Shown: in pieces, positions 1 through 54,394 of the stretch
Layout: every line of letters starts with the position of its first letter
Position numbering within the stretch: the stretch's first letter is position 1
Origin: a virus
Lineage: Duplodnaviria > Heunggongvirae > Uroviricota > Caudoviricetes
Virus record (IMG/VR): IMGVR_UViG_2541047847_000004
Reading direction: 5' to 3' (one strand)
Length of the DNA: 54,394 nucleotides
Made by a program: the position numbers and the translations under genes
The notes under the pieces: model-generated
The model's database searches: none
The model's input: only the letters and a program-made list of their open reading frames with translations
Told to the model about the DNA's origin: nothing

Positions 1-1209
1 ATGTCGGTTTTTCATAACTGGCTGCTTGATATCGCAAGCGGGAATTACTTTATCTACATCAAACGCCTTTCTGCAAACGACACTGGCGCAACAGGTGGCC
101 ATCAGGTCGGACTTTATATCCCCTCAAATATCGTTGAAAAGCTTTTTCCATCTATCAATCATACTCGCGAACTGAACCCTTCAGTCTTCCTTACTGCGCA
201 TGTATCATCCCATGATTGCCCTGATACCCAAGCACGCGCAATTTATTACAACAACCGTTATTTTGGTAAGACCCGAAACGAAAAAAGAATTACGCGCTGG
301 GGGAGAGGAAGTCCATTACAGAACCCTGAAAATACAGGAGCTCTCACAATTCTTGCTTTCAGGTTAAACGAACAGAACACTGACTGTTCCGAGGTAGATA
401 TATGGGTCTGCGTCAATCCCGATGAAGAGGATATCATCGAGTCTGCTATTGGCGAAATCATACCTGGAACCCTAATTTCCGGCCCTGCCGGACAAATTTT
501 GGGCGGATTGTCTCTTCAGCAAACTCCAGTAAATCATAAATATGTTATTCCTGAAGACTGGAAGAAGCGTTTTCCTTCTGGAAACGAAATTATTCAATAT
601 GCTGCTGGCCATTATGCTAAAAACTCCAAGGATCCAGATGAGCAACTGATTGACCGTCGGCGTGTCGAGTATGATATTTTTCTACTCGTCGAGGAATTAC
701 ATGTTCTTGATATTATTAAGAAAGGATTCGATTCTGTAGATGAGTTTATTGCATTAGCCAACTCTGTCAGTAATCGACGTAAATCAAGGGCAGGTAAATC
801 ACTTGAACTTCACCTAGAGAAGCTTTTTATCGAGCACGGACTACGGCATTTCTCCACTCAGGCAGTTACTGAAGGTAATAAAAAACCAGATTTCCTGTTT
901 CCTTCAGCAGAGGCATATCATAACGCTGAATTTCCTGTAGAAAACTTACGTATGCTGGCAGTAAAGACCACCTGCAAAGATCGCTGGCGTCAGATACTGA
1001 ATGAAGCAGATAAAATCCATCAGGTACATTTATTTACGCTGCAAGAAGGTGTTTCTTCAGCACAATACCGAGAAATGAAAGATGCGGGTGTCAGACTCGT
1101 TGTACCATCAACTTTACATAAAAAATACCCAGAAGCAGTTAGAGAAGAATTAATAACGCTCGGAGCATTCATTACTGAGCTGATAGAACTTTACACTGAA
1201 CTATCATAG
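1..1209 (+). CDS. ecoRIIR: Type IIE restriction endonuclease, EcoRII-like
   Basis: 402-aa ORF starting at base 1; N-terminus MSVFHNWLL...YIKRLSANDTGATGGHQVGLYIP matches my memory of EcoRII; convergent with a Dcm-like methyltransferase. Confidence 0.75.
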   Translation: MSVFHNWLLDIASGNYFIYIKRLSANDTGATGGHQVGLYIPSNIVEKLFPSINHTRELNPSVFLTAHVSSHDCPDTQARAIYYNNRYFGKTRNEKRITRWGRGSPLQNPENTGALTILAFRLNEQNTDCSEVDIWVCVNPDEEDIIESAIGEIIPGTLISGPAGQILGGLSLQQTPVNHKYVIPEDWKKRFPSGNEIIQYAAGHYAKNSKDPDEQLIDRRRVEYDIFLLVEELHVLDIIKKGFDSVDEFIALANSVSNRRKSRAGKSLELHLEKLFIEHGLRHFSTQAVTEGNKKPDFLFPSAEAYHNAEFPVENLRMLAVKTTCKDRWRQILNEADKIHQVHLFTLQEGVSSAQYREMKDAGVRLVVPSTLHKKYPEAVREELITLGAFITELIELYTELS

Positions 1210-1243: not shown

Positions 1244-2677
1244 TCAAGGCTGCCCAGTCTTACCAGCATCAGCAGAAACAGCTTTGAGGATATAGGGTTC
1301 CAGAAGTCTGGCAACGGCTTCAAATACTGGCACCACAACGGAGTTACCGAACTGCCGATATGACTGAGTATCTGAAACCGGAATACGGAATGGTTTCCCT
1401 CCAGGTTTTTCAAACCCCATAAGGCGTGCGCACTCTCGGGGAGTCAGCCTGCGTGGTCGACGAGCCTGGTTACTCTCATTCATAAAGTCAGCCTCTCCCG
1501 TTGCCATATCCCAACCACGATCAATAAGAATTTCTGATCCGTCTTTGTGATATCTGGCAGAAAGTGTGCGTGCAATGCTTTCCTTATTCTCAGGATTGAC
1601 CAACCCAAAGCCAAAACCATTCCCCTTGGCTGCATGCTTTTTGGCGTAGTTATAAAGGTACTCCCATAGTTTTGGCGTAAGTATATATTTACTGTCGACT
1701 ACAGGCTCCAGCAATTCACCAAATGATGGGCGGTGTTCCGGATAAAAACGACTGATATCACGCAAGGTAAACCCCTTGTGAATATTCAGATCTCGTCTAA
1801 ATCCGACCAGAACAATGCGTTCACGATGCTGAGGCAAAAAATGCTTCCCATCGATAATCTTTGGATCGTTTTTTCCCATTTCTGCAGCATCGGCAACTTC
1901 GTAGCCCAGCTCGTCAAGGGTCTCCATAATGACTTTGAAAGTTTTACCCTTATCATGGCTCTTCAGATTTTTGACATTTTCCAGCACAAAAATTGCCGGT
2001 TTTTTTGCTCGTATAATACGTGCCACGTCAAAAAAAAGTGTTCCTTGTGCTTCACATTCAAAACCATGCGCACGACCAAGTGAGTTTTTCTTACTAACAC
2101 CAGCAAGGCTAAATGGCTGGCACGGGAACCCCGCAAGAAGCACATCATGATCCGGCACATGCTCATCAATATATGCATAAGCATCCGTTTCCAATACATC
2201 GGTTTTATCACTCAGCGTGACTTCCCGAATATCGAGATTGAATTTATGCACCTGTTCATCGTTAAACCAGTTGGCCTTGTATGTACGCACAGCATCTTTA
2301 TTCCATTCACTGGTAAAAACACACTGACCTCCAATGGCCTCAAAACCTTTCCGTATCCCTCCAATTCCAGCAAATAAGTCAATGAAGCGGAAAGCATATT
2401 CCGGATGGTTTGCAGGTGGTTCTGGTAGCATCTTACGCAGAAGAGACTCTTCTACTGAAGTCAACGATTTTGGTAAACACTTGCCATTAATCCAGCGGTT
2501 AATGGTTTCACGGCTCCACTCATTTTTTCCGACTTTTCTCAGTAATTCAGCCACATACTTCTGATCATAGATTTCCAGCACTTTCTCGATAAGCTTTTTA
2601 TCATTTTCCTGTCGCAGCTTTTCTTCCGCCTCGGCTTCCTTCAGCAGATGCTGTGCCAACACTTCAAATTCAGACAT
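1244..2677 (-). CDS. ecoRIIM: DNA cytosine-5 methyltransferase (Dcm / M.EcoRII-like, CCWGG)
   Basis: Motifs [15 protein letters not shown] (motif I), GFPCQPFS (PC motif IV), ENVKNL (motif VI), strong resemblance to E. coli Dcm. Start moved to internal ATG at 2677 (GGAGGA Shine-Dalgarno upstream, gives 477 aa); ORF track start is 2719. Confidence 0.85.
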
Positions 2678-2895
2678 AATTCCTCCAAGGGGTCTAATGG
2701 GTGAAACTTTATCACTCATTCAACCCAGAAGGAAATGTTTTATCTGGATATTTAAACAGTGACTACAACGTAATCTAGCACTGGTGATGCTTTGTTAGGC
2801 ATAGAGAATCATTCTATATACGACTAATGACAGAAAAACAGCAGACAAGTAGTTTGTTCATAAATTAACGCATACAACGTGCCTGCGGTTTTTGA

Positions 2896-3852
<957 letters not shown>

Positions 3853-3909
3853 GTCTTTAAGTGATAAGCATAAACCGCAGCACGATCTTGCATACGACGT
3901 GCTACGGTT

Positions 3910-4464
3910 TCATTTATCTCCGACCGGAAACTTCTTATACAGTGTCGATATACCAACATCATAGATGATCGCCACCTTCTGGCGAGGAACGCCTGATGCA
4001 ATTAATCGCCCGGCCTGCGCCCATTGTTCTGGTGTAAGTTTGGGACGACGTCCACCAATTCGTCCCTGTGCGCGAGCAGCTTCCAGTCCAGCTTTTGTTC
4101 GTTCAACAATCAGTTCTCGTTCCATTTCAGCCAGGGCACCCATCACATGAAAGAAAAAACGCCCCATCGGTGTGCTGGTATCAATAGCATCCGTCAGGCT
4201 GCGAAAATTAACGCCACGTTCGCGCAACTCCTCAACCAGAATGACCAGATGCCGCATACTACGCCCTAGCCGATCCAGCTTCCAGACAACCAGAGTGTCA
4301 CCTGCCGATAATGTCCTGAGCAGTTTTTTCAGTCCCGGCCTTTCGGACTTTGTACCGCTTATCTTGTCTTCAAAAATCAGCTCGCATCCTGCACAGTTCA
4401 GCGCATTACGTTGTAGATCTGTGTTCTGGTCATTTGTTGACACACGTACATAGCCAATAAGCAT
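3910..4464 (-). CDS. pin: Serine recombinase / DNA invertase (Pin/Gin/Hin family)
   Basis: MLIGYVRVSTNDQ... catalytic-Ser N-terminus and C-terminal HTH typical of Pin; start set to the ATG at 4464 (184 aa) rather than track start 4500. Confidence 0.9.
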   Translation of the reverse strand: MLIGYVRVSTNDQNTDLQRNALNCAGCELIFEDKISGTKSERPGLKKLLRTLSAGDTLVVWKLDRLGRSMRHLVILVEELRERGVNFRSLTDAIDTSTPMGRFFFHVMGALAEMERELIVERTKAGLEAARAQGRIGGRRPKLTPEQWAQAGRLIASGVPRQKVAIIYDVGISTLYKKFPVGDK

Positions 4465-4490
4465 GGTAGATCTCCCTGACAAAAGCAGGA

Positions 4491-5039
4491 ATGATGCCAT
4501 TTGCTCGTTATTTCTGCATTTTCATAAACGTTGGTTTGGGAGAAGGTTCAGCATTACCTGTTGGTGCACCTGTTCCGTGGCCTTCAGAGACACCTCCAAC
4601 AGGCTGGCTGAAATGCAATGGAGCAGCTTTTTCTGCTGAAGAATATCCGGAACTGGCAAAGGCTTACCCGACAAATAAATTGCCTGATTTACGTGGTGAG
4701 TTTATTCGTGGCTGGGATGATTCTAGAGGGATTGATACGGGGCGTTCATTGCTAAGTGGTCAGGCTGCAACATTTATTCGTACAGCTTTGCAGGATTATT
4801 ACGGTTACGATCTGAATACTAATGTCAAAGTAGGTATCGCTTTTGCTACTGCTGATTCTGTTATAACCGTTGGAAACCCAGCTAATCCTAAAGCAGGAAA
4901 TAATAGCGATTATGTTCCTGCATCAGCAGATAACTCCATAATGGGTACTCAAAGGACAGCGGAGGATAATTTTACCGGGGCATGGATATCAATGCGCCCT
5001 CGTAACCTTTCATTTAATTACATCGTGAGGGCTGCATAA
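4491..5039 (+). CDS. Alternative tail-fibre C-terminal cassette (StfE-like), silent in the current orientation
   Basis: Encodes NVGLGEG... directly from the crossover site; lacks its own N-terminal fibre part; the track start at 4491 lies outside the segment so the real coding portion begins near 4546. Confidence 0.55.
   Translation: MMPFARYFCIFINVGLGEGSALPVGAPVPWPSETPPTGWLKCNGAAFSAEEYPELAKAYPTNKLPDLRGEFIRGWDDSRGIDTGRSLLSGQAATFIRTALQDYYGYDLNTNVKVGIAFATADSVITVGNPANPKAGNNSDYVPASADNSIMGTQRTAEDNFTGAWISMRPRNLSFNYIVRAA
4526..4545. repeat. Left inversion crossover site (pix/gix-like)
   Basis: aaacgttggtttgggagaag is the reverse complement of the 6418-6438 site (19 of 20 positions). Confidence 0.65.
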
Positions 5040-5641
5040 TGGATAATGCCGTATTAAATAGCGAGTTTATTGCCACGAAGGCGGGGGATATTACTGTCTA
5101 TAATTATAATGGTGAAACACGAGAATATATTTCCACATCAACTGAATATCTTGCTGTTGGTGTCGGTATTCCGGCATGTTCCTGTTTAGATGCACCAGGA
5201 ACATATAAAGCTGGTTATGCCATCTGCCGCTCTGCGGATTTAAACTCATGGGAATATGTGCCAGACCATCGCGGAGAAATCGTCTATAACACCGAAATGG
5301 GAGACGCCAAAGAAATCACAACTCCGGGTGATTACCCCGAAAATACAACCACTATCGCCCCATTAACGCCATACGATAAATGGGATGGTGAGAAATGGGT
5401 GACCGATACTGAGGCACAGCATCACGCCGCAGTAGACGCGGCAGAAGCACAGCGTCAGTCACTGATTGATACTGCAATGGCTTCCATTAGTCTGATTCAA
5501 CTGAAATTACAGGCTGGGCGGAAGCTGATGCAGGCAGAGACCTCCCGACTTAACACTGTGCTGGATTACATTGACGCGGTGACGGCAACAGATACCAGCA
5601 CCGCGCCGGATGTCATCTGGCCTGAACTGCCGGAGGAGTAG
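5039..5641 (+). CDS. tfaE: Tail fibre assembly protein (TfaE-like)
   Basis: 200 aa, follows the StfE-like cassette; typical Tfa N-terminus and C-terminal ...TSTAPDVIWPELPEE. Confidence 0.65.
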   Translation: MDNAVLNSEFIATKAGDITVYNYNGETREYISTSTEYLAVGVGIPACSCLDAPGTYKAGYAICRSADLNSWEYVPDHRGEIVYNTEMGDAKEITTPGDYPENTTTIAPLTPYDKWDGEKWVTDTEAQHHAAVDAAEAQRQSLIDTAMASISLIQLKLQAGRKLMQAETSRLNTVLDYIDAVTATDTSTAPDVIWPELPEE

Positions 5642-6053
5642 GCCATTCAATATCTGGCGCACTGGAAGTATCGACCAGCTCCAGTGCGTCCAGATAATCC
5701 AGCCACAAATTATATTGCGCCAGTTCCTCACCTTTCAGACGACCAATAGCCGCTTTACCAGCCCATTGTTTACTGTTCATATAATCGTTGGCCTGATTAA
5801 TCAATTGCTGCTTTTTCAGTTCGGCTGCAGCAATCTGTTCCTCATGTGTTGGTGGTGGAATTTCAGACCATGCAGGAAAACCATTTTCTCCAGCGATACG
5901 GATTTTTCCTTTCGGCGGTAATCCGGAAAACTCAATATACACTTGCTCATCAACTTCAACAGCATCATCTGGCCATGAGTCAGCTTGCGTGTAATCCTCT
6001 TTCATCTCCAAGGGATAGAAAGAGTTTGTAGTCGCGGAATATATGTAATTCAT
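5613..6053 (-). CDS. tfaP: Tail fibre assembly protein (TfaP-like)
   Basis: 146 aa downstream of the expressed fibre gene; 3' end overlaps tfaE convergently (5613-5641). Confidence 0.6.
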   Translation of the reverse strand: MNYIYSATTNSFYPLEMKEDYTQADSWPDDAVEVDEQVYIEFSGLPPKGKIRIAGENGFPAWSEIPPPTHEEQIAAAELKKQQLINQANDYMNSKQWAGKAAIGRLKGEELAQYNLWLDYLDALELVDTSSAPDIEWPTPPAVQAR

Positions 6054-6079
6054 TTTTCACTCCATAAAGTTAAAAGAAA

Positions 6080-6721
6080 TTAACACCCTAATGCGAAAAA
6101 TGAAGCACCGATACCGGGTACGCCTGCTCTGGAAATAAATTTCACCGGGTCCTGGTTATAACCGGCACAAGCTATATAGCCAACATTTGCACTGCCGGGA
6201 GTGTAATCCTGAGTCGCAAATACCCGCAGACATCTATTCGGAAATGCAATCGGAAAATAGGTTACTGTGTCCTGAGACGTCAGCGGAACATCAATTGGCC
6301 CCCATTGAATAATTAAACCGGATGGCAATTTTTGATATCCAGGAACTGAAGCAGAAAGCATAAAACTACCCATATCAGGTATCTGATTCGCCCCTGTCCC
6401 TACATTTCTTTTAGCCGCTTCTCCCAAACCAAGGTTTTCGAGAGCCGTTTTCACGGTGCCATCCGATTTGATATCGTCAAACGGATTCTTGCGGCTTAAC
6501 AGCAGCGCACGAAGCGCGGTAAGCAGCTGGTCATGCCGCCCCTTCTCCAGGCTGGCACCGGATGCCTCCACCACGCCACAAAGCTCTTCCTGCAACATGT
6601 CAAAGTAGTCATCATCCAGATCGGTGGCAGGCGTGCCAGTCTGGGGGTTACCACGGGTAAAACCGTTCTTACCCGCGCCGAACTTATCCTTCTGCGCGGT
6701 TTTCGTGTCTATACGATGCAT
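6080..6721 (-). CDS. stfP: Side tail fibre protein (StfP-like); C-terminal ~113 aa lie inside the invertible segment
   Basis: 213 aa; the crossover site encodes ENLGLGEA at the constant/variable junction. Confidence 0.7.
6418..6438. repeat. Right inversion crossover site
   Basis: cttctcccaaaccaaggtttt, inverted copy of 4526-4545, located inside stfP. Confidence 0.65.
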
Positions 6722-6724
6722 GGA

Positions 6725-7309
6725 TTACTCCGGATATTTAAAAATTACGTAGGTATGCGACGGGCAGAGTTTGTTAAGCACACACTCGACAACGGTGTCA
6801 CCCCAGATACGCAGTGCGGAATCACAGGGATCGCCACATGTCATCCAGGTGGTGTTGGTGGTGGTTGGCATGTTGACCTGCCAGTAATACCGCCATTCCG
6901 GCGCATTCACCGCGTCAGTACAGGCCGATGAGCAGGTGAACGTGCTTTTGTCGTATCGCGTGATGGTGGCATCTGGTCTGCCCAGGGCAGCAAGCTGTGC
7001 AAGATAAAAATCCTCGTTGATGCCGCCCGCCAGGTTAACCTTCGCATCCAGCCGTTGCTGACGCTGGCGAAGGGTCTGCGTTCCCGCCGGAATACATTCA
7101 TCCGGCAGACCGCACAGACGCTCCCAGCGGTTTATCAGTTCAGTGGTGGTGCGCGGATCCAGCTCCCGCATCAGGGCATCCGCACGCTGATGAACACGGG
7201 TTAATGACGGTGCCGCACCGGCAATCGCCGGATCGCTGGCTGACCACGCCGGACCAGGCGGCAACAGTGCCGATAACAGGCGGATGTAATCATCGTTTGT
7301 CACGTCCAT
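6725..7309 (-). CDS. Phage tail protein (YmfQ / Mu gp48-like)
   Basis: 194 aa immediately upstream of the tail fibre gene, same length and position as e14 YmfQ. Confidence 0.6.
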
Positions 7310-8358
7310 GAAATCGTCCCCAGTACCGCCAGTTCGTTTTTCGCAATGGAGATATTGTCCACCGGTGCAAGCAACTGATGGCTGTATTCCCCGTTCGCAC
7401 CGGAAATCGCCTCACTGATACGCGATACCTTCAGTTCTCCCTGCGGATAACCATCACGCAGCAGGAACGAACGCAACTCCGCGGTAATGGCAGCCCGTAT
7501 TTCCGGTGTGTCCGGCGTCACGCGGATATGAAAATCCACCGTATGTGCCACCGGCCTGAATACATACAAATCAGAGCCTGCCACCGGGGCCAGTGGCCCG
7601 ATATGTTGTCTTGCTGCCGTTTCCGTTGATTCTTCCGGAATGGGATTAATCAGGTCACTGCTGGCAATCATCACACCGACAGTTCCCGTTCCCATCCAGT
7701 GACGGTATGTCCATGCGCGGGTAATGCCGGGCACTTCTTTAGCCCAGACGACATAGTCCCCGTCAGCCCCGCCCTGAGGCGTCCAGTAATACCGCTCAAT
7801 GACGCGGGCGCGCCACGTTTCCAGCTCTTCAGTATCAAATCCACCTGTCAGGGTATCTGCCACGCCGGAAGACGGCAGACCATTAACCGGCGTGACCAGG
7901 ATTAATGACGTACCGTCGTCAGCGTTACCGACCGCGCCTGCACTTGAGCAGGCGATCGGCACGCGCAGGACACCACCGGAGCTGGTTGCATCGGCAGTTG
8001 CCGTGTACTGAACCAGGTCATCGCGCTGAATAACACTCCCGGCGGTCACCTTCAGGCCATCGCTGACACCTTCCCAGCGCATATACCCGCTGGCAGCCGT
8101 GGCCCCCTTGCGCGGACACCGTTTCATCGCAGCATGTCGCGCCAGCCAGGACTCATCGCACAGGTCAGGCAGCATGTTCATTGCCAGATAATCGATGTAC
8201 CCGTAAACCGTATGCAGCGCCGCCGCATACACCTTTGCCCGCACGTCTTCATCCATGCGCCGGAGCGTGTCGCTGACGTCCAGCCTGGCGAATAAATCGT
8301 TACGGAGCATACTGATATTTTCTGCCAGCGTCGGGCGCTGAAATTCACTGTCCGCCAT
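7300..8358 (-). CDS. Baseplate J-like protein (Mu gp47-like)
   Basis: 352 aa in a conserved Mu-like baseplate gene order. Confidence 0.7.
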
Positions 8359-37516: not shown

Positions 37517-37762
37517 ATGTTGCTCCCGTGTGCAGACGGGATAATGGAGAAACGTATGCTGAACCTCGATTGTGTTCCTATCTCAACTTATTGCAAAGAA
37601 ACTGGCGAAACTCCTGAAGCAATAAACAAACGTGTACAGCGCGGTGTTTGGCGTGAAGGTGTTCAGGTTTTAAAGGTTGAAGGCGTTAAGGAGAGGTGGA
37701 TTGATCTTAGTGAGGTTGCAAAATGGGCCAGACAAAACTGCTCAAACTACCGCGCGGCGTAA
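37517..37762 (+). CDS. xis: Excisionase-like protein
   Basis: Small basic ORF directly upstream of and overlapping int; alternative start at 37556 (GGAG + 6 nt). Confidence 0.5.
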   Translation: MLLPCADGIMEKRMLNLDCVPISTYCKETGETPEAINKRVQRGVWREGVQVLKVEGVKERWIDLSEVAKWARQNCSNYRAA

Positions 37763-38895
37763 CAATCAGGAAACACCGCCAGGGAGAAACGATCAATATA
37801 ACTTTCACCTACAAAGGAGTTAGATGTCGTGAGCCGCTTTCCAATCTGGAAGTAACACCAAAGAACATTAAATACGCCGAGCGTACACTCGGCGAAATCC
37901 ATAATAAGATCGAAAGGGGAACATTCATTTATGCAGAATATTTTCCCCGTTCTGCTCGTTTGAAAATTTTTGGTAATGCTGCTGCAGGCAAAACGGTAAA
38001 GGTGTACCTGGACGAATATCTTGAAATCTGCGAAACAAGAAAACTTTCACCCTCTACGATTGGTGGCTATAAAAAATGCCGTAGTGCGTTAGCCTCACTT
38101 CACATTTGCCCTGCAAGTGAATTAACACCAGCAACCCTGAAAGCGTGGATTCAAAGCCAGAAAACAACCTTAAAAACCATTCGCAACCAGTTATCTTTCC
38201 TACGGTCAGCACTTGATGAAGCCGTGACCGATGGGGTACTTCAAATTAACCCCGTATCGTTAGTAACAGCTTCGCGCTACCAAAGTGATAAGTCAGAAGC
38301 AGAAAGCAGCTATGTGGTTGATCCGCTATCACCAGCAGAAGTTGATGCATTACTAGCAGCAGCCGGAAACAAACAATGGGAAAATCTGTTCCGGTTCGCC
38401 ATACATACAGGCCTGCGTAGTTCTGAATTATGTGCCCTACGATGGCATGATATCGACTTTGTTGGAAAAACAGCCCATGTTCAGAGCGCAAGTGTTGTCG
38501 GAGTTATCAAAGGAACAAAGACAAAAGCCGGTACCCGTAAAGTTGAACTGACTGAAGAAGCAATGTTGGCGTTGATAAACCAGAAGCCATTTACATTCAT
38601 GAAGGATGCTACTGTCTTTGAAGATCCAAAGACCAATAAACCCTGGGCAAGTGCTGATGCAATTAGGAAAAAAGCATGGGTGCCAACATTGCGAAAAGCA
38701 GGTATTCGTTACAGAAACCCATATCAAACCAGGCATACATTCGCCACCAGCCATATCAGCCGGGGAGCAAACCTGTTTTGGCTTGCGGCTCAAATGGGCC
38801 ATAAAGGGCCTGAAATGTTATTCAGGCACTATGGACAATACTTGAAAGAGTATGATGGGAGGGCAAGTATCAAGGATAAAAAGGCTTTATTTTAA
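37723..38895 (+). CDS. int: Tyrosine integrase (prophage)
   Basis: 390 aa; C-terminal R...H..R...Y catalytic pattern (HTFATSHISRGANLF...LGHKGPEMLFRHYGQY). Confidence 0.85.
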   Translation: MGQTKLLKLPRGVTIRKHRQGETINITFTYKGVRCREPLSNLEVTPKNIKYAERTLGEIHNKIERGTFIYAEYFPRSARLKIFGNAAAGKTVKVYLDEYLEICETRKLSPSTIGGYKKCRSALASLHICPASELTPATLKAWIQSQKTTLKTIRNQLSFLRSALDEAVTDGVLQINPVSLVTASRYQSDKSEAESSYVVDPLSPAEVDALLAAAGNKQWENLFRFAIHTGLRSSELCALRWHDIDFVGKTAHVQSASVVGVIKGTKTKAGTRKVELTEEAMLALINQKPFTFMKDATVFEDPKTNKPWASADAIRKKAWVPTLRKAGIRYRNPYQTRHTFATSHISRGANLFWLAAQMGHKGPEMLFRHYGQYLKEYDGRASIKDKKALF

Positions 38896-39504
38896 GTCAT
38901 TATGCCAATCGTCTACTGTTTGAAACCAAATTTTTAACCTTTGCATAAAGGTACGATCCTTTTTGGGAGGGTGGTACCTTTGAAAAGAAGTATGTAACGC
39001 TTCGATAACTCCCATACAAGCATCAATTACTTCTTGTGCTTTAACCGGGCGATCGGTATCTGAAAGCTTGTGAGCGACCTCACAATCCAGAGTTGCTTTC
39101 TCTAGTACAGATGAGAACACCTCGTCAGGTATATACAGTCCTCTGCTTTCCAAAATGCAAATCAGTTTGGAAACTTGTTGAGCTTTAGCCAAGATAGTTA
39201 ACAAGTATGAAACAGAAGCCTTTGTTCTATCCTTTTGCAACCTTAACAATCGATGCTTTGATGCTCTAATTTTAGGTTGAGTTGTCTGACTGAGCCAATA
39301 GTTAGAAGAAATATCAGAAATTTCAATAACTAACTTTGAAATAGCATCAATAATTGATTTCGATTCAGAACGTGTCGCCAGTTTTACAGAATTATTGTAC
39401 GCAACTCGCCATCCAATGAAAACTAAGCAGACGCTAACTACTGTGATACACCACGAATACTGTCCTATTTGTGCTACTAATGACATTGGTTCCGTACTGA
39501 TCAA
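38887..39504 (-). CDS. Membrane-anchored protein, third gene of GHKL operon
   Basis: 205 aa, single N-terminal TM helix (WCITVVSVCLVFIGW) then largely helical soluble part; 10-nt gap to upstream gene; 3' end overlaps int 3' end. Confidence 0.45.
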   Translation of the reverse strand: MISTEPMSLVAQIGQYSWCITVVSVCLVFIGWRVAYNNSVKLATRSESKSIIDAISKLVIEISDISSNYWLSQTTQPKIRASKHRLLRLQKDRTKASVSYLLTILAKAQQVSKLICILESRGLYIPDEVFSSVLEKATLDCEVAHKLSDTDRPVKAQEVIDACMGVIEALHTSFQRYHPPKKDRTFMQRLKIWFQTVDDWHNDLK

Positions 39505-39845: not shown

Positions 39846-40757
39846 TCATCTCCTGGGAACCAGCGACCATTGTAGTAAAGTACCCGGTATGTACTCAGCT
39901 AGCTTCTCACATCGAGGACTACTGTCATTAGAATTATAGCTATAACGAGCCCTTCCTGTTAGTATCAGAAGTGTCTCATTATCCTCACAACCTGCCCCAA
40001 TAGGTCTCTTGATATCTTCAGAGCCATTTCCCCGTCCGGAACCAACAAAGCGGGATTCCCCTACTAACATAGCTCTTTCCACAGAAGATACTTCGTTTTG
40101 AATGCTATGACCATCACCATTAGGCACGAAACTTCTATAAATCCCCAATCCAAGGTCACAAACGATAAAAACGACTTTATTTTCATCACGATTGAACCAA
40201 GCGCACTGCCACCATCGTTTACCTTTGAGAAGCTGAATATCTGACTCGAACCCCTCATCTTCATACGCATGATGAGAAACATTGAGCAAAGCTTCACTAA
40301 TCGCTGTCAGCAGTAAGCCTAACTGTTCATTATTAAGCAGAGCACTTTTCTGCAGCATGAGTACTGTTTCAACAATATGCTCGTAAGGTTCGACAGCTGA
40401 CTGAAAGTATCGTTCCTCCCTCGTAAGTGCATTCAGTTTCTCTTCTGTGCCAGCAAGCAAAGCACGAGCAAGTCCAGTACCAACGATCCATCTATGCCCA
40501 GATGGGTTATCATCCTTTTTAGGCCATTTAAAACGTATAAAATTAGGGTCCCGGGTTAAAAATTGAGCTCTATTTACTATGGCAAAGAACAGTACCGATG
40601 CCGCAGCTGAGGCAAATTTTACCTTGGACAAATCAACTATAACTCGACCTTTATTTTTTACTCCAATCGATTCAATCGAGTTGATGAAGTTCAATGTCCC
40701 AGCCCTAGAATCATCTGAGTAAATGCAAAATTTGCTTGGGGGTACCAGTATGGTCAT
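39846..40757 (-). CDS. GHKL-superfamily ATPase (histidine-kinase-like ATP-binding domain) with unassigned N-terminal region
   Basis: N-box SEALLNVSHHAY, G1 box VCDLGLGI, G2 box GSGRGNG in order in the C-terminal half; no HisKA/dimerisation domain or receiver visible. Confidence 0.55.
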   Translation of the reverse strand: MTILVPPSKFCIYSDDSRAGTLNFINSIESIGVKNKGRVIVDLSKVKFASAAASVLFFAIVNRAQFLTRDPNFIRFKWPKKDDNPSGHRWIVGTGLARALLAGTEEKLNALTREERYFQSAVEPYEHIVETVLMLQKSALLNNEQLGLLLTAISEALLNVSHHAYEDEGFESDIQLLKGKRWWQCAWFNRDENKVVFIVCDLGLGIYRSFVPNGDGHSIQNEVSSVERAMLVGESRFVGSGRGNGSEDIKRPIGAGCEDNETLLILTGRARYSYNSNDSSPRCEKLAEYIPGTLLQWSLVPRR

Positions 40758-40909: not shown

Positions 40910-40941
40910 GGACTCGGGTTCAACTCCCGCCAGCTCCACCA
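40910..40941 (+). repeat. ssrA: 3'-terminal fragment of tmRNA gene ssrA (attachment-site repeat)
   Basis: GGACTCGGGTTCAACTCCCGCCAGCTCCACCA matches the T-arm/acceptor 3' end of E. coli tmRNA; upstream sequence is unrelated AT-rich DNA, so only the att core is present. Confidence 0.7.
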
Positions 40942-41055
40942 CTTGCTCTTCCGGATACGTCCGGAGAAATCCTGAAAGCCCGCATGGCACAAGCTTTGCG
41001 GGCTTTTTTGTGTCTATCTTTGTCCGAGGATATCCAGCTAAATCCAGTGATTATT

Positions 41056-41125: not shown

Positions 41126-42319
41126 GTGGCACGTACAACACGCCCTCTTACTAACACTGAACTATCACGTGCTAAAGCAACTGAAAAGGATCTAACGCTA
41201 CATGATGGTGATGGGCTTTTTCTACTCATAAAAACGAACGGAAGGAAGTTGTGGCGTTTCCGATACCAGAAGCCTGTATCAAAACAGAGAACCATGATTA
41301 GTTTAGGAACGTTCCCCGCCCTATCTCTGGCTGAGGCCAGAAACGTGCGTGCTGAGTATCTTTCCTTATTAGCCCGGGGTATTGATCCACAAACATACAG
41401 TAAGCAAGTCTCAGAACATCAACAGATTGCGATTGATAGTATTTTTTCAAAAGTTGCCACAAATTGGTTTGCCATAAAAAGCAATAACGTCACACCTGAT
41501 TATGCAAAGGATATATGGCGATCCTTAGAGAGGGACATTTTCCCTGCTATCGGTGAGATTCCTGTTCAGGAAATAAAAGCCCGCACATTAATTGAAGCCC
41601 TAGAGCCAATTAAAGCTCGTGGGGCACTTGAGACTGTTCGTCGTTTAGTACAACGTATTAATGAAATTATGATTTATGCTGTTAATACTGGTCTGATAGA
41701 TGCTAACCCTGCTTCAGGCATTGGTATGGCATTTGAAAAACCTAAAAAACAGCACATGCCAACGCTTAGACCTGAAGAATTACCGAAACTCATGCGTTCA
41801 ATAACAATGTCTAATTTATCTATTCCAACTCGTTGTTTGATTGAATGGCAACTCTTAACACTTGTACGCCCTGCAGAAGCTTCCAATGCAAAGTGGATAG
41901 AGATCGATTTCGAAGCTAAACTATGGATAATACCAGCCAATAGAATGAAGGCAAAGCGGGAACATATTGTTCCATTATCACTTCAGACATTAGATATTCT
42001 TGAAATTATGAAGCCAATCAGTTCACATCGAGAATATATTTTTCCTAGCAGGAATAACCCCAATCAACCAATGAACAGTCAGACGGCAAATGCAGCCTTA
42101 AAGCGCATCGGTTATGGTGGTAAGTTGGTTGCACACGGACTGCGTTCGATAGCAAGTACAGCAATGAATGAAGCTGGTATAAATCCAGATATTATCGAAG
42201 CAGCACTTTCCCATTGTGATAAAAATGAGGTTAGAAGAGCATATAATCGAACAACCTACTTGGAACAAAGAAAAGAGCTTATGAATTGGTGGGGTAGTTT
42301 CATTTCAAAAAACAAATAA
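41126..42319 (+). CDS. int: P4-type tyrosine integrase
   Basis: 397 aa from GTG; N-terminus MARTTRPLT...LHDGDGLFLLIKTNGRKLWRFRY typical of P4-family integrases next to ssrA. Confidence 0.9.
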   Translation: MARTTRPLTNTELSRAKATEKDLTLHDGDGLFLLIKTNGRKLWRFRYQKPVSKQRTMISLGTFPALSLAEARNVRAEYLSLLARGIDPQTYSKQVSEHQQIAIDSIFSKVATNWFAIKSNNVTPDYAKDIWRSLERDIFPAIGEIPVQEIKARTLIEALEPIKARGALETVRRLVQRINEIMIYAVNTGLIDANPASGIGMAFEKPKKQHMPTLRPEELPKLMRSITMSNLSIPTRCLIEWQLLTLVRPAEASNAKWIEIDFEAKLWIIPANRMKAKREHIVPLSLQTLDILEIMKPISSHREYIFPSRNNPNQPMNSQTANAALKRIGYGGKLVAHGLRSIASTAMNEAGINPDIIEAALSHCDKNEVRRAYNRTTYLEQRKELMNWWGSFISKNK

Positions 42320-42329
42320 GGATATAGTG

Positions 42330-43445
42330 ATGAATAATAAAGATTTTCCATGCAAAGCCTCAAATATCTATGATAAAAATATAAATTTTTTATTTGGCTC
42401 AGGCTCCTCTGCTTCATATATTCCTACTCTCTATCTAGATAAAAACACTACTTATGAAACATTACTTACACATGAGGATTGTGAGGGTGTCAAGGACTTC
42501 ATATTATGTTCTTATTTCAATAATATCATTAGAAAAACATTTTGTGTTAAACCTAATAGTGAAGACAAAAAATATAATTCTACTTTAGCAAACTATAGCT
42601 ACTTTATTGATGAACTAATCAAATTATTAGAGAAAAAAGGGGCAAATCAAATAAGGCGAGCGAATATTTTTACAACAAATTATGATCTTTTTTTCGAAAC
42701 TGCGGCTGATGATATTTTAAATAATAAAACATTTCATTTCAATGACGGTGGTCTAGGTTTCAAAAGCCGGAAATTGAACATTAGTAATTTTCATATTACT
42801 GCTTGGCATCAAGGTACGCATGATATGTACAAACATGAAATTCCAACAGTAAACTTAATAAAAATGCATGGTTCTGTTTCTTGGTGTAGAGATATTAATG
42901 AAACGATTAGTATTAATTACACTCAAGAAGAACCACCAAAGTTTAGACTAGATACAAAAAAAGACATTAATGATTTAGTCACCACCTTAAACGAAACAAG
43001 CGATAATCTCGTTAGTTATTTAAATTTATCTACAAGCGATCAAGAAACACTTCAAGAATTTAAATCTTATTACAACAACTTAGCTATAGTTAGCCCAACT
43101 AAAGAAAAATTTTCTGAAACTGTTTTTCAACAACATTATTACCAATGTTTACGATTGCTAAGTTATGAATTAGAGAAACCACAAACTGTATTAATTTGTT
43201 TTGGTTTTTCTTTTCAAGATGAACACATACGTGAGATTATAAAAAGATCATTAAGTAACCCTACTCTTAAGGTCTTTGTTTTTTGCTACTCAAAATCCAG
43301 CATGGAAAGTATACAGCACATTATCAATGACCAACGAATAACCTATATTCTTCCTATAGAAGATGATCATACAATTTCATTTAAACCGTTTATAGATAGA
43401 GTATTTAGATCTGAACACGGAGATTGGATTACATGGAAGAACTAA
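42330..43445 (+). CDS. SIR2-family NADase-like protein (defence pair with HerA)
   Basis: FLFGSGSS (Rossmann GxGxS), TTNYD and KMHGSVSW motifs characteristic of SIR2 domains; AT-rich; start at ATG 42330. Confidence 0.7.
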   Translation: MNNKDFPCKASNIYDKNINFLFGSGSSASYIPTLYLDKNTTYETLLTHEDCEGVKDFILCSYFNNIIRKTFCVKPNSEDKKYNSTLANYSYFIDELIKLLEKKGANQIRRANIFTTNYDLFFETAADDILNNKTFHFNDGGLGFKSRKLNISNFHITAWHQGTHDMYKHEIPTVNLIKMHGSVSWCRDINETISINYTQEEPPKFRLDTKKDINDLVTTLNETSDNLVSYLNLSTSDQETLQEFKSYYNNLAIVSPTKEKFSETVFQQHYYQCLRLLSYELEKPQTVLICFGFSFQDEHIREIIKRSLSNPTLKVFVFCYSKSSMESIQHIINDQRITYILPIEDDHTISFKPFIDRVFRSEHGDWITWKN

Positions 43446-45205
43446 TTGTTGGTAATGTTACCCAAATAAAGGGCACAACAGTAAGGGCCAAAATCAATCA
43501 TGACTTTTTTCAGTCAACATACTTTCATAAAGGTAAAATACTACGAGGTATCTCTATAAATGAATTTGTTTTGATTAAAAAAGGTTATCACGATATCGTC
43601 GGAAAGATTATTGGTGAAGAAATTGTTGAAAACATCAATATTAGAAGCGATGAAATTGAACAAAAAAAATATGACCGTTTTGTAGAACTGAATATTTTAG
43701 GGTATTTTTTTGAGAGTTCATTTTATTCCGGTATAAAATTTTTACCAATGATAAATGACAGCTTACACTTAATTTCAGACGAGAAGATATCAGAAATATA
43801 TAAGTTTAGCAAAAACACTAAAGCACCTTTAATAAACATAGGGAAATCTATGTTAGAGGAGTTGCCAATTAACATACCAATAAATGGTATTTTTAATTCA
43901 CACATAGGCATATTTGGAAACACTGGAAGTGGCAAGTCCAACACTCTTGCAAAACTTTATCACTCTCTAATAAACCTTATAACAACAAAAGAAAGAGTTA
44001 TATCAAAATCAAGTTTTGTTTTGATTGATTTTAATGGTGAATACAGCACATTTGCTACGTCATTTCCAGATTTGTGCGAACAAGTCAATCTCAACACAAA
44101 GAATTCCGGTGATAAACTAACTTTCACTGATGATGAATTTTGGGATGATGAATTATTATCGGTATTGTTTTCTGCAACTGAAAAAACTCAAAAGCCATTT
44201 CTTAGTCATTTAATTAAAAATAGAGAAAAATATAATGGTAAATTGGAGGATTACTTACAAACAACTATCCACAGTATGTTTTCTCCTAATCCACACAGGG
44301 AAACAATAAATTTATTAAAAAGCCTTGCCCCTTACTTTTCAGAGAGAGCACAGGGTAAAATACTTGAAGAGTTATCACAATTCTCATGGCATTCTGGGCA
44401 AAATAAGTATTTGCACTCAAAATACAACTTCATTGATAAAATGGAAGATGCTTTACAGGCTTTAGATGCAACATATAAATCCAAGTTTAAGTTAAACAGC
44501 GTTTTTGATGAAGTTGCAATCCGATCTATTCTACAACTAATTAATTCAGTATCACGTAATTATGTACAATATGATCATATATATCCGCTAATTAATAAAA
44601 TAACGGCAATGACTCCTGCCCTATCCAAAGTAATTAATATCAGAAACGAAACAAAAAATAAAAAACCTATATATATAGTGTCATTAAAAGAGTGCAATCA
44701 ATTAATCAAAAAAACCATTCCAATGATGCTTGCAAAATGTTCATTCTTAGAGCACAAGTCATCTAAAAATACAAAGGAAAGCTTCCACCTAATTATAGAT
44801 GAAGCACACAACATATTGTCTGAAACATCTGTCAGAGAGGCGGAAACATGGAAAGATTATAGGCTTGAGTTATTTGAGGAAATAATAAAAGAGGGAAGGA
44901 AGTTTGGGTTCTTCGTTACAATTTCGAGTCAACGACCTTTTGACATCTCTCCCACAATTGTTTCCCAACTTCATAATTATTTTATTCATCGATTAGTGAA
45001 CGAAAATGATTTGTTTTTGTTAAAAAATACTTTAAGCACCCTTGATGCGGCATCAAGATCACTAATTCCAACACTTCCTCCTGGTGGGTGTATAGTTTCA
45101 GGAACAGCTTTCCACACCCCATTACTTGTTCAAATCGACAGATTAGCTGAGGAAAATGCTCCTAACAGCGATACTCTTGATTTAGAAAAATTGTGGGATA
45201 TTTAA
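43433..45205 (+). CDS. herA: HerA-like ATPase
   Basis: Walker A GNTGSGKSN and Walker B HLIIDEAHN; overlaps SIR2 stop; start at ATG 43433 (track TTG 43424). Confidence 0.75.
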   Translation: MEELIVGNVTQIKGTTVRAKINHDFFQSTYFHKGKILRGISINEFVLIKKGYHDIVGKIIGEEIVENINIRSDEIEQKKYDRFVELNILGYFFESSFYSGIKFLPMINDSLHLISDEKISEIYKFSKNTKAPLINIGKSMLEELPINIPINGIFNSHIGIFGNTGSGKSNTLAKLYHSLINLITTKERVISKSSFVLIDFNGEYSTFATSFPDLCEQVNLNTKNSGDKLTFTDDEFWDDELLSVLFSATEKTQKPFLSHLIKNREKYNGKLEDYLQTTIHSMFSPNPHRETINLLKSLAPYFSERAQGKILEELSQFSWHSGQNKYLHSKYNFIDKMEDALQALDATYKSKFKLNSVFDEVAIRSILQLINSVSRNYVQYDHIYPLINKITAMTPALSKVINIRNETKNKKPIYIVSLKECNQLIKKTIPMMLAKCSFLEHKSSKNTKESFHLIIDEAHNILSETSVREAETWKDYRLELFEEIIKEGRKFGFFVTISSQRPFDISPTIVSQLHNYFIHRLVNENDLFLLKNTLSTLDAASRSLIPTLPPGGCIVSGTAFHTPLLVQIDRLAEENAPNSDTLDLEKLWDI

Positions 45206-45225
45206 TATCGCTACGCGCAGTGCTT

Positions 45226-45262
45226 TCCCCGCCTCGCCCGCACGCTTTGCGGGGCGGTTTTA
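45226..45262 (+). terminator. Intrinsic terminator after herA
   Basis: ccccgc...gcgggg stem followed by cggtttta; two further GC-rich hairpins at 45286-45309 and 45340-45374. Confidence 0.5.
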
Positions 45263-45402
45263 ATGCAGTTGCACTGACACGCTCAGACCGCGCCGGGAAT
45301 GGCGCGGTCTGCAGAAAATGAGGCAGGGAAACGCATGCAAAGCCATGCACCTTATCGATGCATGGCTTTTTTCAGTAAAAACAGGCGGATTTTCGGGAAA
45401 TT

Positions 45403-45975
45403 TTACACAGACTGACGTGATGCCAGTTGCGCACTTTTACGCGAAAAAATCATGTTCTGCGCAGGGGTAAATTTTTCACGGCTGTCGTCCACCGAAGCCG
45501 CGTCAGGCCTGAATCCGATGGTCGTTAAAATGTCGCTATCCTGTGCGGAATAATTAATTTTTTCCCCCTTCGCAAGCCAGGACAGAAGGGCTTCACGCAG
45601 GGCATCTGTGGCACGCTGTATGGCACAGTTTCGGGCAATGGCCGTCAGCTCACTGTAGCCCATCAGCTCCGGTGCCAGTGCCGCCGCCAGTGCTGTGCCG
45701 TGCTGCTGCATAAAATCATTCAGCCGGTCGCGGATGCTGATGTGCTGAACGGCTTCATGCGAACGAATATAACGACCAGCGGCCTGATTCACCTGCCATT
45801 TTCTGACTTCGATAATATTGCGTAATTCGTCCAGGCGACTGACGTTTCTGCCTTCTCCTGACAGAAGCCGCAGATATTCCTGTTCGGCCGCTGCCAGCTC
45901 ATTTTTGCGTTGCAGCCATGCTGCTTTGTTATTCTGACAGGTGTCAAAGGCCTGCTGTAAGGCTGTGCTTTCCAT
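45403..45975 (-). CDS. psu: Polarity suppression protein Psu
   Basis: 190 aa, same length and position as P4 Psu in the sid-delta-psu block. Confidence 0.75.
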   Translation of the reverse strand: MESTALQQAFDTCQNNKAAWLQRKNELAAAEQEYLRLLSGEGRNVSRLDELRNIIEVRKWQVNQAAGRYIRSHEAVQHISIRDRLNDFMQQHGTALAAALAPELMGYSELTAIARNCAIQRATDALREALLSWLAKGEKINYSAQDSDILTTIGFRPDAASVDDSREKFTPAQNMIFSRKSAQLASRQSV

Positions 45976-46048
45976 CGTTATCTCTTTCTCATCATGCTGA
46001 AGAATAAAAATACGGTGTGCGGCGACGGCCGGTGTTAACCGGCAGCCC

Positions 46049-46549
46049 TCATTCCAGACGCAGCGAATATGATTGTGTTTTTAAGCGTACTGGCGGCAGT
46101 TCCTGTTTTTCATGCAGGCTTTCTGCCAGTTCGTCCGGCGTGACCGGGCGGACAATGAAACGGTTGATGGTCTGAAGCGTTTTAAACACCAGACCACAGC
46201 CCGGATCCGTGCACACATAAAAACGCTCGGTGACTTCCTGAGACAGACGCCGCGATGTTCTTGACAGTGCAAGGCCTTTACATCTCCGACAACAATATCC
46301 GGTAACAAGCATTCTTTTCGGGCGTTTCATACTGCCGGAGGCTGACGTCAGTGAATCGCGGTATCTCTGTTTGCCTGAAATGTATTCCATTCCTGAATCT
46401 TTACTGTCAGAGAAAAAGCTTTCACTCGCTTCAAATGTCGCAGAGCAATAAATATTCCGGCACTGTGCAATCATTATCTTGGTGCCATCGTCCATGAAAT
46501 GTGCGCGGCGGGTGTGAGCAACATGACCACACGACGGGCAGTAAATCAT
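46049..46549 (-). CDS. delta: Delta (Ogr/Delta zinc-finger late transcription activator)
   Basis: 166 aa with two CxxC...CxxC units (CPSCGH...C...C and CCRRCKG...CTDPGC). Confidence 0.75.
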   Translation of the reverse strand: MIYCPSCGHVAHTRRAHFMDDGTKIMIAQCRNIYCSATFEASESFFSDSKDSGMEYISGKQRYRDSLTSASGSMKRPKRMLVTGYCCRRCKGLALSRTSRRLSQEVTERFYVCTDPGCGLVFKTLQTINRFIVRPVTPDELAESLHEKQELPPVRLKTQSYSLRLE

Positions 46550-47280
46550 GACAGCAGTCCTCTGGCCTTAAGCACTGCTCCCTGCTGGTCTATTTTGTCC
46601 TGCCACACCTTGCGCTGTGCCGGTGTGCCTGCCACCTCATAATCCATGTGAGGAAGTGTTGCCGCTGACAGTCCGGTCAGCCGGAGAACCGGCTCGCCGG
46701 TGAGGCTGATTTGCATCTGTTTAATTTTCTGTTCCAGCGATGATTTCACCTGCTGCATGACAGCCTTTTCCGGTGCGACGTAGCCCTGATGGCCGGTGGT
46801 GTTGGCGAGCGGATTTTCCTGTACCAGAATGCTCAGATGCATTGCCCGGACAAGCGCCTCACAGGTTTCATTCAGGGCGTGTTCCAGCTCATGCTCTGCA
46901 TACAGACTCAGAAGGTGATGATGTGCCTTCCGGTAGGCGGTGGCCGTGCTGTCACACGCCCCTTTCAGGCGTTCGCGTTCAAAATTCAGCACCACGGCCA
47001 GATTGTCATATTCCTGTACCAGTTCCCGGCGTGCCACGCGCTCAATGTGGCGCTGTTTCAGCTCGTCGCTCAGGACACCACCGGCTGCACGAAAGGCCGT
47101 GCGCCAGTCGTCAGCGTCGTTTCCGTCGGCCTGCGCCAGCGCATTTTTTTCCTGCTCTGCCCGTTCAATGGCCGTGACGGTCTCATCCATCAGGCGGGCG
47201 TTCTCAAGATGGGCGGCTCTGGCCTTTTCCAGTTGTGCCAGTGCGGGTTGCAGATATTCAGGGATGGTGTTGTCAGACAT
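46546..47280 (-). CDS. sid: Capsid size determination protein Sid
   Basis: 244 aa from ATG 47280; upstream of delta with overlapping stop/start. Confidence 0.7.
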   Translation of the reverse strand: MSDNTIPEYLQPALAQLEKARAAHLENARLMDETVTAIERAEQEKNALAQADGNDADDWRTAFRAAGGVLSDELKQRHIERVARRELVQEYDNLAVVLNFERERLKGACDSTATAYRKAHHHLLSLYAEHELEHALNETCEALVRAMHLSILVQENPLANTTGHQGYVAPEKAVMQQVKSSLEQKIKQMQISLTGEPVLRLTGLSAATLPHMDYEVAGTPAQRKVWQDKIDQQGAVLKARGLLS

Positions 47281-47449
47281 TTTCCGGCTCCTCGTCACTT
47301 CAGGTTAAGAAAATTGTGACGTACACCGGACAACAACACGACGCATTGCAGATGTGCCAGCCCTGACACAGGAGACTCATCCTCAGACCGGCAAGCCAGG
47401 AAAAGGTCGCAGGAAAAACCGGCTTACTGTTTGTTTTTTTATATTTTAC

Positions 47450-47553
47450 TGTTCACCTCTGTTCACCATAAGAAAAAAGACAAGTAATACAGTAAGTTAA
47501 ATGGTGAACAATCGCAGTAATGACTGTTCACCGTCTGTTCACCACTGTTCACC
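47450..47553. repeat. TGTTCACC iteron cluster (P4 crr/ori-type alpha-binding sites)
   Basis: Six TGTTCACC octamers (five direct, one inverted) within ~100 bp. Confidence 0.6.
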
Positions 47554-49423: not shown

Positions 49424-49558
49424 TTAAAAAACGACACCCGAAAAATTAAATGTGCGTATTCGCGCAGGGATACGCACGTCTTCAGGAGACGCAGATATGC
49501 CTTATCAGTTAATGCAACCGGCACGGAATGCAGTCATCTGTCACAGGGAGGAAAGCAA

Positions 49559-49879: not shown

Positions 49880-49893
49880 AGGAGAACAACACC

Positions 49894-53317: not shown

Positions 53318-54394
<1,077 letters not shown>

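Follow-up and report, generated by a model that had tools for sequence, protein, structure and literature searches.

We found that the window, by which we mean the whole stretch of 54,394 nucleotides that was analyzed, very probably carries the P-segment inversion switch of a myovirus prophage of the e14 family. The locus has the anatomy of such a switch, the reading frame is preserved upon inversion, and both the crossover sites and the enzyme are homologous to those of known inversion systems. Descriptions of the Pin/P-segment system as such date back to the 1980s (for the P segment of K-12 e14 see Plasterk and van de Putte 1985, cited in PMC4272514), and new experiments on it followed in 2014 and 2025. 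By analogy with the G segment of Mu and the C segment of P1, inversion would be expected to switch the host range of the phage.

The segment is bordered by a 20-nt inverted repeat, whose arms (4526-4545 and 6418-6437) are complementary at 19 of the 20 positions (95%) and are spaced by 1872 nt. The first-pass annotation had recognized both arms, yet extended the right one by one base too many, to 6438. Even with two mismatches allowed, the perfect 14-nt core, TTGGTTTGGGAGAA, has no copies in the 54-kb window other than these two, which are on opposite strands. The repeat forms the core of two imperfectly palindromic 26-bp crossover sites of the Hin/Gin/Cin type, pixL (4519-4544, plus strand; TTTTCATAAACG-TT-GGTTTGGGAGAA, central dinucleotide at 4531-4532) and pixR (6419-6444, plus strand; TTCTCCCAAACC-AA-GGTTTTCGAGAG, central dinucleotide at 6431-6432), which are in inverted orientation, share an identical central dinucleotide (TT/AA) and are identical to the pin-proximal and the stfP-side site of K-12 e14, respectively. 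pixR is located within the fibre gene, at codons E95-A102. The proposed alignment with the gix and cix sites could be made: pixL aligns with cixL, cixR, gixL and gixR, as taken from the annotated P1 and D108 records, and the 26-bp sites match, the central dinucleotide being the place of the crossover. Rightwards from position 6410 the window is 97.8% similar to K-12, and the similarity breaks off at pixR. Further pix-like sites, as in a multi-segment or shufflon-type arrangement, are absent from the window; AAACCNNGGTTT with the proper flanks marks the two sites only, and its match at 16941 is at chance level.

The segment itself (4532-6431, ~1900 bp) contains two convergent gene pairs, each made up of a fibre tip and an assembly gene. 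Of the fibre gene, the 5' part is constant and lies outside the segment, and the 3' part exists in two alternative in-frame versions, each with its own tfa gene behind it. The expressed version (6080-6721, minus strand) encodes 213 amino acids with a tip of the Gp53-like_C type, and starts 3 nt past the stop codon of ymfQ (6725-7309) in the late tail operon. Its constant N-terminal part (6432-6721, minus strand; residues 1 to ~97) is ~96% identical to the N-terminus of K-12 StfP and is joined to either tip in public genomes. The variable C-terminus (6080-6431, minus strand; Pfam Gp53-like_C, E = 4e-18) is a gp53-like, pyocin-fibre-like tip, which shows weak similarity to gp53 of AP22 (4mtm) and to the R1 and R2 pyocin fibres (6cxb, 6ct8 and 6cl6). 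It is paired with a tfaP-like assembly gene (5613-6053, minus strand; 146 aa; Pfam Caudo_TAP, E = 2e-38), the product of which is conserved with K-12 TfaP in its C-terminal half but differs in its N-terminal half. On the other strand, the silent alternative C-terminus (4532-5039, plus strand) is of the StfE type, has a Collar domain (Pfam, E = 7e-16) and resembles the tip of T4 gp37 (2xgf, E = 7e-15) and short tail fibres; it is close to K-12 StfE over the first ~90 residues and different in the middle. Its open reading frame is read from 4491 or 4524 to 5039, and the in-frame ATG at 4491 defines an orphan ORF of 182 aa. The accompanying tfaE-like assembly gene (5039-5641, plus strand; 200 aa; Pfam Caudo_TAP, E = 4e-30) yields a product for which a search by sequence found no solved structural relative. 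The fibre parts had no match in an NCBIfam search.

The Pfam domains and reading frames agree with the two oppositely oriented pairs of fibre C-terminus and assembly gene that the first-pass annotation had described for this 1.9-kb segment. Its placement of the right repeat within stfP at the codons ENLGLGEA (6439-6416), of the matching NVGLGEG at the left repeat (4527-4547) and of a convergent 29-bp overlap between tfaE and tfaP (5613-5641) could likewise be reproduced. The orientation had been called StfP-on, which is appropriate in the sense that it equals that of the MG1655 reference, where stfP is a complete gene, and that the expressed tip is StfP-type by domain and position; the variable part, however, is only ~30% identical to that of K-12 StfP. 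For annotation purposes, the 213-aa fibre and the pin-adjacent 'fragment' ORF represent one gene in two states and should not be labelled a pseudogene.

The invertase gene pin (3910-4464, minus strand) encodes a serine DNA invertase of 184 aa, which starts with MLIGYVRVSTNDQ and in which the motif YVRVSTNDQ sets the catalytic serine at residue 10. The gene is intact and positioned just outside the segment; it shares its strand with the fibre operon and points away from the segment. Control by Pin had been proposed for a segment at 4464-6721, and the intact, Gin-type gene supports this, although it falls outside that interval. The protein contains a Resolvase domain (Pfam, E = 9e-52) and an HTH_7 domain (E = 5e-13), its residues 1-181 match the Gin structures 3uj3 and 4m6f (E = 1e-93), and its C-terminus matches Hin's DNA-binding domain (1hcr); NCBIfam provided only sub-threshold recombinase matches. 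No second invertase gene was found in the window, pin being the only invertase-like gene.

Hin acts on 26-bp sites and makes use of a Fis enhancer, which is located within the invertase gene, ~100 bp away from the proximal site (PMC3798978). A putative Fis-dependent recombinational enhancer can be placed at 4375-4446 (minus strand), that is at nt 19-90 of pin and ~85-155 bp from the pixL crossover. This region is homologous in position to the enhancer annotated for Cin inversion in P1 (cin nt 19-90), and is identical to cin at 55 of 72 positions (76%) and to gin at 54 of 72. The synonymous conservation within pin nt 19-90 showed no excess over that of the rest of the gene, neither against cin (10/20 vs 53/122) nor against gin (10/22 vs 53/114), and the enhancer is therefore a putative one, assigned by position only. 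By analogy, inversion may depend on Fis and this enhancer.

The switch can be envisaged to operate as follows. The constant 5' part of the fibre gene (6432-6721, minus strand) would be co-transcribed with the baseplate genes. Dimers of Pin would bind both sites, as judged from the homology with Hin, Gin and Cin, and the sites would then synapse, probably on the enhancer within the 5' end of pin, with Fis bound to it. Cleavage is predicted to occur at the central TT/AA dinucleotide and to be followed by strand exchange through subunit rotation. In the present orientation this should result in a 213-aa fibre with the gp53/pyocin-like tip, followed by the 146-aa Tfa chaperone; in the flipped orientation, the same N-terminus would continue in frame into the collar-domain tip, for a fibre of 265 aa with the 200-aa Tfa behind it. 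As inversion offers two in-frame tips, the virions released from a population of lysogens would be of two kinds, which differ in the receptor-binding tip.

Among the closest known counterparts is e14 of E. coli K-12, a defective remnant prophage with the same gene order. Like the window, it contains ymfQ, the constant fibre part, a tip, tfaP, an inverted tfaE with a silent tip, and pin, and it shows the same 29-bp tfa overlap. The similarity is high for Pin (175 of 184 residues identical to PinE; 95%), YmfQ (98%), the constant N-terminus (~96%) and TfaE (175 of 200 residues; 87.5%), and complete for the two 26-bp sites (100%). The differences concern the tip alleles, with only ~30% identity for the gp53-like tip and a different middle part of the collar tip and N-terminal half of TfaP, and furthermore the surroundings. 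More explicitly, the cargo after pin consists of PD-T4-3 and an EcoRII-type restriction-modification system in the window and of mcrA in K-12 e14, and close relatives of the window prophage sit at ssrA, whereas e14 sits at icd. Given the different tip alleles and neighbours, and the location of its relatives at ssrA, we consider the prophage a relative of e14 and not e14 itself. In contrast to the e14 remnant, it has an integrase and full-length structural genes, as judged by ORF size, and a switch within such a complete-looking prophage is better suited than that of the defective e14 for testing tip-dependent host range. The P segment of K-12 e14 measures 1797 bp, against ~1900 bp here, has the repeats TTGGTTTGGGAGAAGG and inverts in culture, with ~30% inverted (PMC12529663). 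The inversion is catalyzed by PinE, PinQ and PinR (PMC12529663), and whole-genome sequencing and PCR have also revealed phase variation at the locus (PMC4272514).

When the segment is inverted in silico at the central TT/AA, the frame is maintained and the outcome is a fibre of 265 aa, of which 262 residues are identical to an annotated CDS of E. coli ETEC1730. In this way, the earlier suggestion that inversion fuses the constant N-terminus to the alternative C-terminus is corroborated by a natural gene. The flip also creates an orphan ORF of 130 aa, which is 100% identical to its ETEC1730 counterpart, and this bears on the view that the switch is mainly an anti-phage device of the lysogen, in which orphan proteins starting at the ATG at 4491 block the adsorption of other phages. 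In K-12, inversion of the P segment is reported to yield StfE2, which lowers the adsorption of T2 (PMC12529663); the equivalent 130-aa ORF is annotated in both ETEC1730 and UID2309220027, and the segment adjoins the defence cargo formed by PD-T4-3 and the EcoRII-type system. Nevertheless, we consider it unlikely that this is the main role. The tip of the window shares only ~30% identity with that of K-12 StfP, so that the K-12 StfE2 phenotype is not transferable, and the adsorption and protection assays were carried out with plasmid-produced StfE2 (PMC12529663). Furthermore, AGGA directly abuts the ATG at 4491, which is an unfavourable distance for a ribosome-binding site, and a sigma-70 consensus scan of 3800-6900 revealed no promoter upstream of the orphan ORF or of pin, the counts of promoters and terminators in this region being at shuffle level; for pin, this counts against the fibre switch as well. 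Blocking of adsorption is in itself compatible with the fibre-switch function. That the fibre switch doubles as a lysogen defence, in which the orphan tip fragment (182 aa now, 130 aa when flipped) blocks competing phages, is an idea to which we assign a rather low probability. As the tips are different alleles from those of K-12, the spectrum of blocked phages would differ, and the switch, PD-T4-3 and the EcoRII-type system would then constitute one defence-cargo arm of the prophage.

Both orientations of the P segment exist in nature, and the breakpoints lie within the repeats. In a comparison of the window with ETEC1730, its closest relative and flipped, the breakpoints fell within 4526-4545 and 6418-6437, and natural inversion breakpoints map to pixL. 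The E. coli strains TUM11352 and UID2309220027 have flanks that are 100% identical (3545 and 3382 nt) and differ only in the 1.9-kb segment, which has been flipped with its ends precisely at the repeats. The entire 2.9-kb locus was recovered, at a coverage of at least 80%, in the present orientation from 21 and in the flipped orientation from 23 of 5426 complete E. coli genomes. A fibre-side junction of the present type occurs in 382 genomes, and one of the flipped type in 511 genomes. As a consequence for genomics, the orientation of the segment may differ between otherwise identical assemblies, and the segment can break assemblies.

Could the locus be a frozen relic, with ancestral repeats and cassettes, in a strain in which the segment is now locked? 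A single assembly displays only one orientation, and relatives can be locked, as exemplified by ETEC1730, the pin gene of which is split by an IS66 element. Here, however, pin is a complete ORF of 184 codons' worth of protein with its catalytic Ser10 and 95% identity to the active PinE, both sites are identical to K-12 sites that invert (PMC12529663), and near-identical prophages were found in both orientations, which makes a locked segment very improbable. Current switching in this particular strain is what these features would predict. An origin of the inverted repeat as a chance match or assembly artefact deserves practically no credit, since no 20-nt inverted repeat with one mismatch or fewer arose in 200 shuffles of 3500-8000, against one observed, and the same repeats and architecture recur in hundreds of independent complete genomes and in K-12.

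Considering the P-segment switch in relation to other inversion systems, the arrangement is identical to that of the G segment of Mu and D108, in which Sc-Sv-U is likewise followed by an inverted U'-Sv' and by an invertase gene on the strand of the fibre operon that reads away from the segment (S-U-U'-S'-gin). Gin and Pin are identical at 141 of 180 positions, and the gix sites share with those of the window the consensus TTATCNAAAACC-TY-GGTTTNNRGRAA, although gix has TC as its central dinucleotide where pix has TT. The sites of the P1 C segment are homologous to pix and do have a central TT, with the annotated crossover between the two T's, and Cin is identical to Pin at 148 of 180 positions. 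Unlike in the window, cin is on the other strand and converges on the S operon, cixL and the 3' end of cin overlap, and the segment measures 4.2 kb. Hin of Salmonella belongs to the same enzyme subclass as Pin; it flips a promoter for flagellin genes rather than swapping the 3' ends of genes, and hin lies inside the invertible segment. In P2-like prophages (e.g. Escherichia phage pro483), a module of pin, the collar tip, tfaE and a portion of tfaP shows 86-87% DNA identity to the window. Outside this module, the phage, including the constant part of its fibre, is unrelated and P2-type. The module being alike and the remaining phage unrelated, horizontal exchange of the module is evident. Finally, the G segment is ~3 kb long and has unrelated tips, and next to the S fibre of ~500 aa of the Mu-type phage D108 the fibre described here is very short, at 213 or 265 aa, which counts somewhat against the proposed switch.

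The repeat scan recovered two inverted-repeat arms at 4526-4545 and 6418-6437 (20 nt, 19 of 20 positions complementary, 1872 nt apart), so that the repeats proposed in the first-pass annotation are present, although the right one ends one base short of the 6438 claimed. The match is not due to chance: across 200 shuffles of 3500-8000, no inverted repeat of 20 nt with one mismatch or fewer arose, against the one observed. Within the 54-kb window, the perfect 14-nt core TTGGTTTGGGAGAA was found only at the two repeat positions, on opposite strands, with up to two mismatches allowed. The ORF scan and the Pfam domains bore out that two opposed fibre-tip/assembly pairs lie between the repeats. On the plus strand these are a promoter-distal tail-collar-domain fragment (4524-5039) and a Caudo_TAP assembly protein of 200 aa (5039-5641), on the minus strand a 213-aa fibre gene with a Gp53-like_C tip (6080-6721), its 3' part inside the repeats, and a Caudo_TAP assembly protein of 146 aa (5613-6053). 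ENLGLGEA at the right repeat is encoded by 6439-6416, NVGLGEG at the left by 4527-4547, and the two tfa genes overlap by 29 bp (5613-5641); the earlier statements were therefore all correct to within one base. The segment also contains an inverted repeat of 18 nt (83%; 5560-5577 / 5686-5703), which is not a pix-like site; it reflects the homologous Tfa C-terminal ends (LDYIDA, LDYLDA) on opposite strands.

The two 26-bp crossover sites, pixL and pixR, were aligned to cixL, cixR and the mapped crossover from the annotated P1 record and to gixL and gixR from D108, and line up with both the cix and the gix sites. PixL (4519-4544) and pixR (reverse complement of 6419-6444) share the centre TT and the inner half GGTTTGGGAGAA, with outer halves TTTTCATAAACG and CTCTCGAAAACC, respectively. 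The corresponding outer halves are CAATCCTAAACC in cixL and TTATCCAATACC in cixR (reverse complement), with centre TT and inner half GGTTTAAGAGAA, and TTATCCAAAACG in gixL and TTATCTAAAACC in gixR (reverse complement), with centre TC and inner half GGTTTACAGGAA. In P1 the annotation places the crossover between the central T's, equivalent to 4531/4532 and 6431/6432 in the window. Both pix sites are identical to the two K-12 e14 sites and contain TTGGTTTGGGAGAAGG, which has been reported as the K-12 P-segment repeat (PMC12529663).

In-silico flipping of 4532-6431 kept the reading frame and joined the constant StfP N-terminus to the alternative C-terminus, as had been predicted: ...ALENLGLGE runs into GSALPVG..., yielding a fibre of 265 aa that carries the collar tip, its gene followed by that of the 200-aa Tfa. 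The ORF next to pin turns into a 130-aa fragment with the gp53-like tip. Both orientations, with breakpoints in the repeats, were found across complete E. coli genomes: at 80% coverage or more the 2.9-kb locus was present in this orientation in 21 genomes and in the flipped one in 23, and a 600-bp fibre-side junction probe gave 382 and 511 genomes, respectively. The cleanest case of natural inversion is provided by TUM11352 and UID2309220027, with flanks of 3545 and 3382 nt at 100% identity and the 1.9-kb segment reversed. The breakpoints between them fall within the repeats, and in each genome the one mismatch between the arms remains on the outer side, which is what exchange at the core or within it should give. 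ETEC1717 and ETEC1718, the closest relatives (99.6%), have the segment in the same orientation as the window. In ETEC1730 the prophage is the same but its segment is flipped (breakpoints at window 4526-4545 and 6418-6437); its annotated 265-aa fibre matches the predicted fusion at 262 of 265 residues, and its 130-aa ORF does not differ from the predicted orphan. An IS66 element, flanked by a target duplication of 8 bp, interrupts pin there (1808-5074 in ETEC1730, L002; window equivalent 4391-4398), so that this copy can no longer leave the flipped state and is a naturally locked variant. The phage record ON470584.1 (Escherichia phage vB_EcoM-689R6) starts 27 nt outside pixL, in the pin-pixL spacer (~4491); a mixture of the two orientations in the sequenced stock could have made the assembly break at the invertible segment.

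Control by Pin, also proposed before, fits an intact pin just beyond the left repeat (3910-4464, minus strand; 184 aa, Pfam Resolvase and HTH_7), the product of which is identical to K-12 PinE at 175 of 184 residues. It has the YVRVSTNDQ motif with Ser10 and, over residues 1-181, matches crystal structures of Gin (3uj3 and 4m6f; E ~1e-93). No second invertase gene was found across the window. In the Hin system the sites are 26 bp long, Fis binds an enhancer that lies within the invertase gene at ~100 bp from the proximal site, and exchange proceeds by subunit rotation (PMC3798978); the same mechanism would apply here, inversion probably being Fis-dependent. By position, pin nt 19-90 (window 4375-4446; 76% identical to cin) corresponds to the enhancer annotated in cin and lies 85-155 bp from the pixL crossover; we regard this stretch as a putative enhancer, since synonymous sites there showed no excess conservation over the rest of pin.

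The inverted repeat and segment are thus confirmed and the interpretation as a switch is supported. The system is the already known P segment of e14-type prophages. In K-12 e14, ymfQ, stfP, tfaP, tfaE, stfE (annotated pseudogene) and pinE are ordered and oriented as here, and the tfa genes likewise overlap by 29 bp. In MG1655 derivatives, whole-genome sequencing revealed phase variation at the K-12 locus and PCR confirmed it (PMC4272514, citing Plasterk and van de Putte 1985 and Mehta et al. 2004). Inversion of ~30% was measured in wild-type BW25113, PinE, PinQ and PinR each invert the P segment, and the inverted form was noted in natural strains (PMC12529663). In the strain of this window the switch is presumably active. 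In overall architecture the locus follows Mu/D108 G-gin and not P1 C-cin: its invertase gene is on the fibre-operon strand and points away from the segment.

Unlike e14, the prophage has full-length integrase, terminase, portal, capsid, sheath, tape-measure and baseplate ORFs, as judged by comparison with the annotation of the collinear ETEC1717 prophage. Rightwards from 6410 the DNA shares 97.8% identity with K-12, but similarity ends at pixR and collapses inside the segment, which suggests cassette replacement anchored by the conserved site and the constant region. The mosaic boundary (6410-6444) coincides with the recombination site. The gp53-like tip is ~30% identical to that of K-12 StfP; the collar tip shares the first ~90 and last ~15 residues with StfE and differs in the middle; TfaP differs in its N-terminal half and TfaE is 87.5% identical. 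P2-like phages such as pro483 carry a pin, collar tip and tfaE module of 86-87% identity, an illustration of the known horizontal exchange of fibre modules.

Both tips resemble solved receptor-binding fibre ends: the expressed one has weak similarity to R-type pyocin fibres and AP22 gp53, and the silent one resembles the collar region of T4 gp37 and gp12. That the orphan fragments block other phages seems improbable: the K-12 orphan chimera StfE2 is claimed to block T2 adsorption (PMC12529663), but that allele is only distantly similar, and the orphan ORF has a poorly spaced ribosome-binding site and no promoter detected in a promoter scan. By analogy, the two tips would give different host ranges in an e14-type phage.

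Directly downstream of pin lies a GIY-YIG protein gene (3073-3852, plus strand; Pfam LEM-3_GIY-YIG), matching the PADLOC PD-T4-3 model almost end to end (E 2.5e-140), and an EcoRII-type restriction-modification pair spans 1-2719 (endonuclease with EcoRII-N and EcoRII-C domains, 1-1209, plus strand; C5 cytosine methyltransferase, 1244-2719, minus strand). K-12 e14 has mcrA in this slot, and TUM11352 and UID2309220027 a 502-aa hypothetical protein; the prophage end beyond pin looks like a variable defence-cargo slot. Between the prophage integrase (37723-38895) and an ssrA 3' fragment (GGACTCGGGTTCAACTCCCGCCAGCTCCACCA, ~40911-40942), two minus-strand ORFs of 205 aa (38887-39504) and 303 aa (39846-40757) matched no family in Pfam, NCBIfam or PADLOC, the 303-aa one giving a weak sub-threshold HATPase_c_2 match only. 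They may be uncharacterised cargo in a defence hotspot, as ETEC1717 has a DarT/NADAR pair at the equivalent spot beside the integrase. A P4-like satellite lies within 41126-52227, with integrase (41126-42319), psu (45403-45975), ogr/delta (46049-46549), sid (46546-47298) and primase-helicase (49894-52227) genes, and a defence pair of SIR2 (42327-43445) and HerA (43424-45205) immediately behind its integrase gene; glaH (53417-54394) comes after the satellite.
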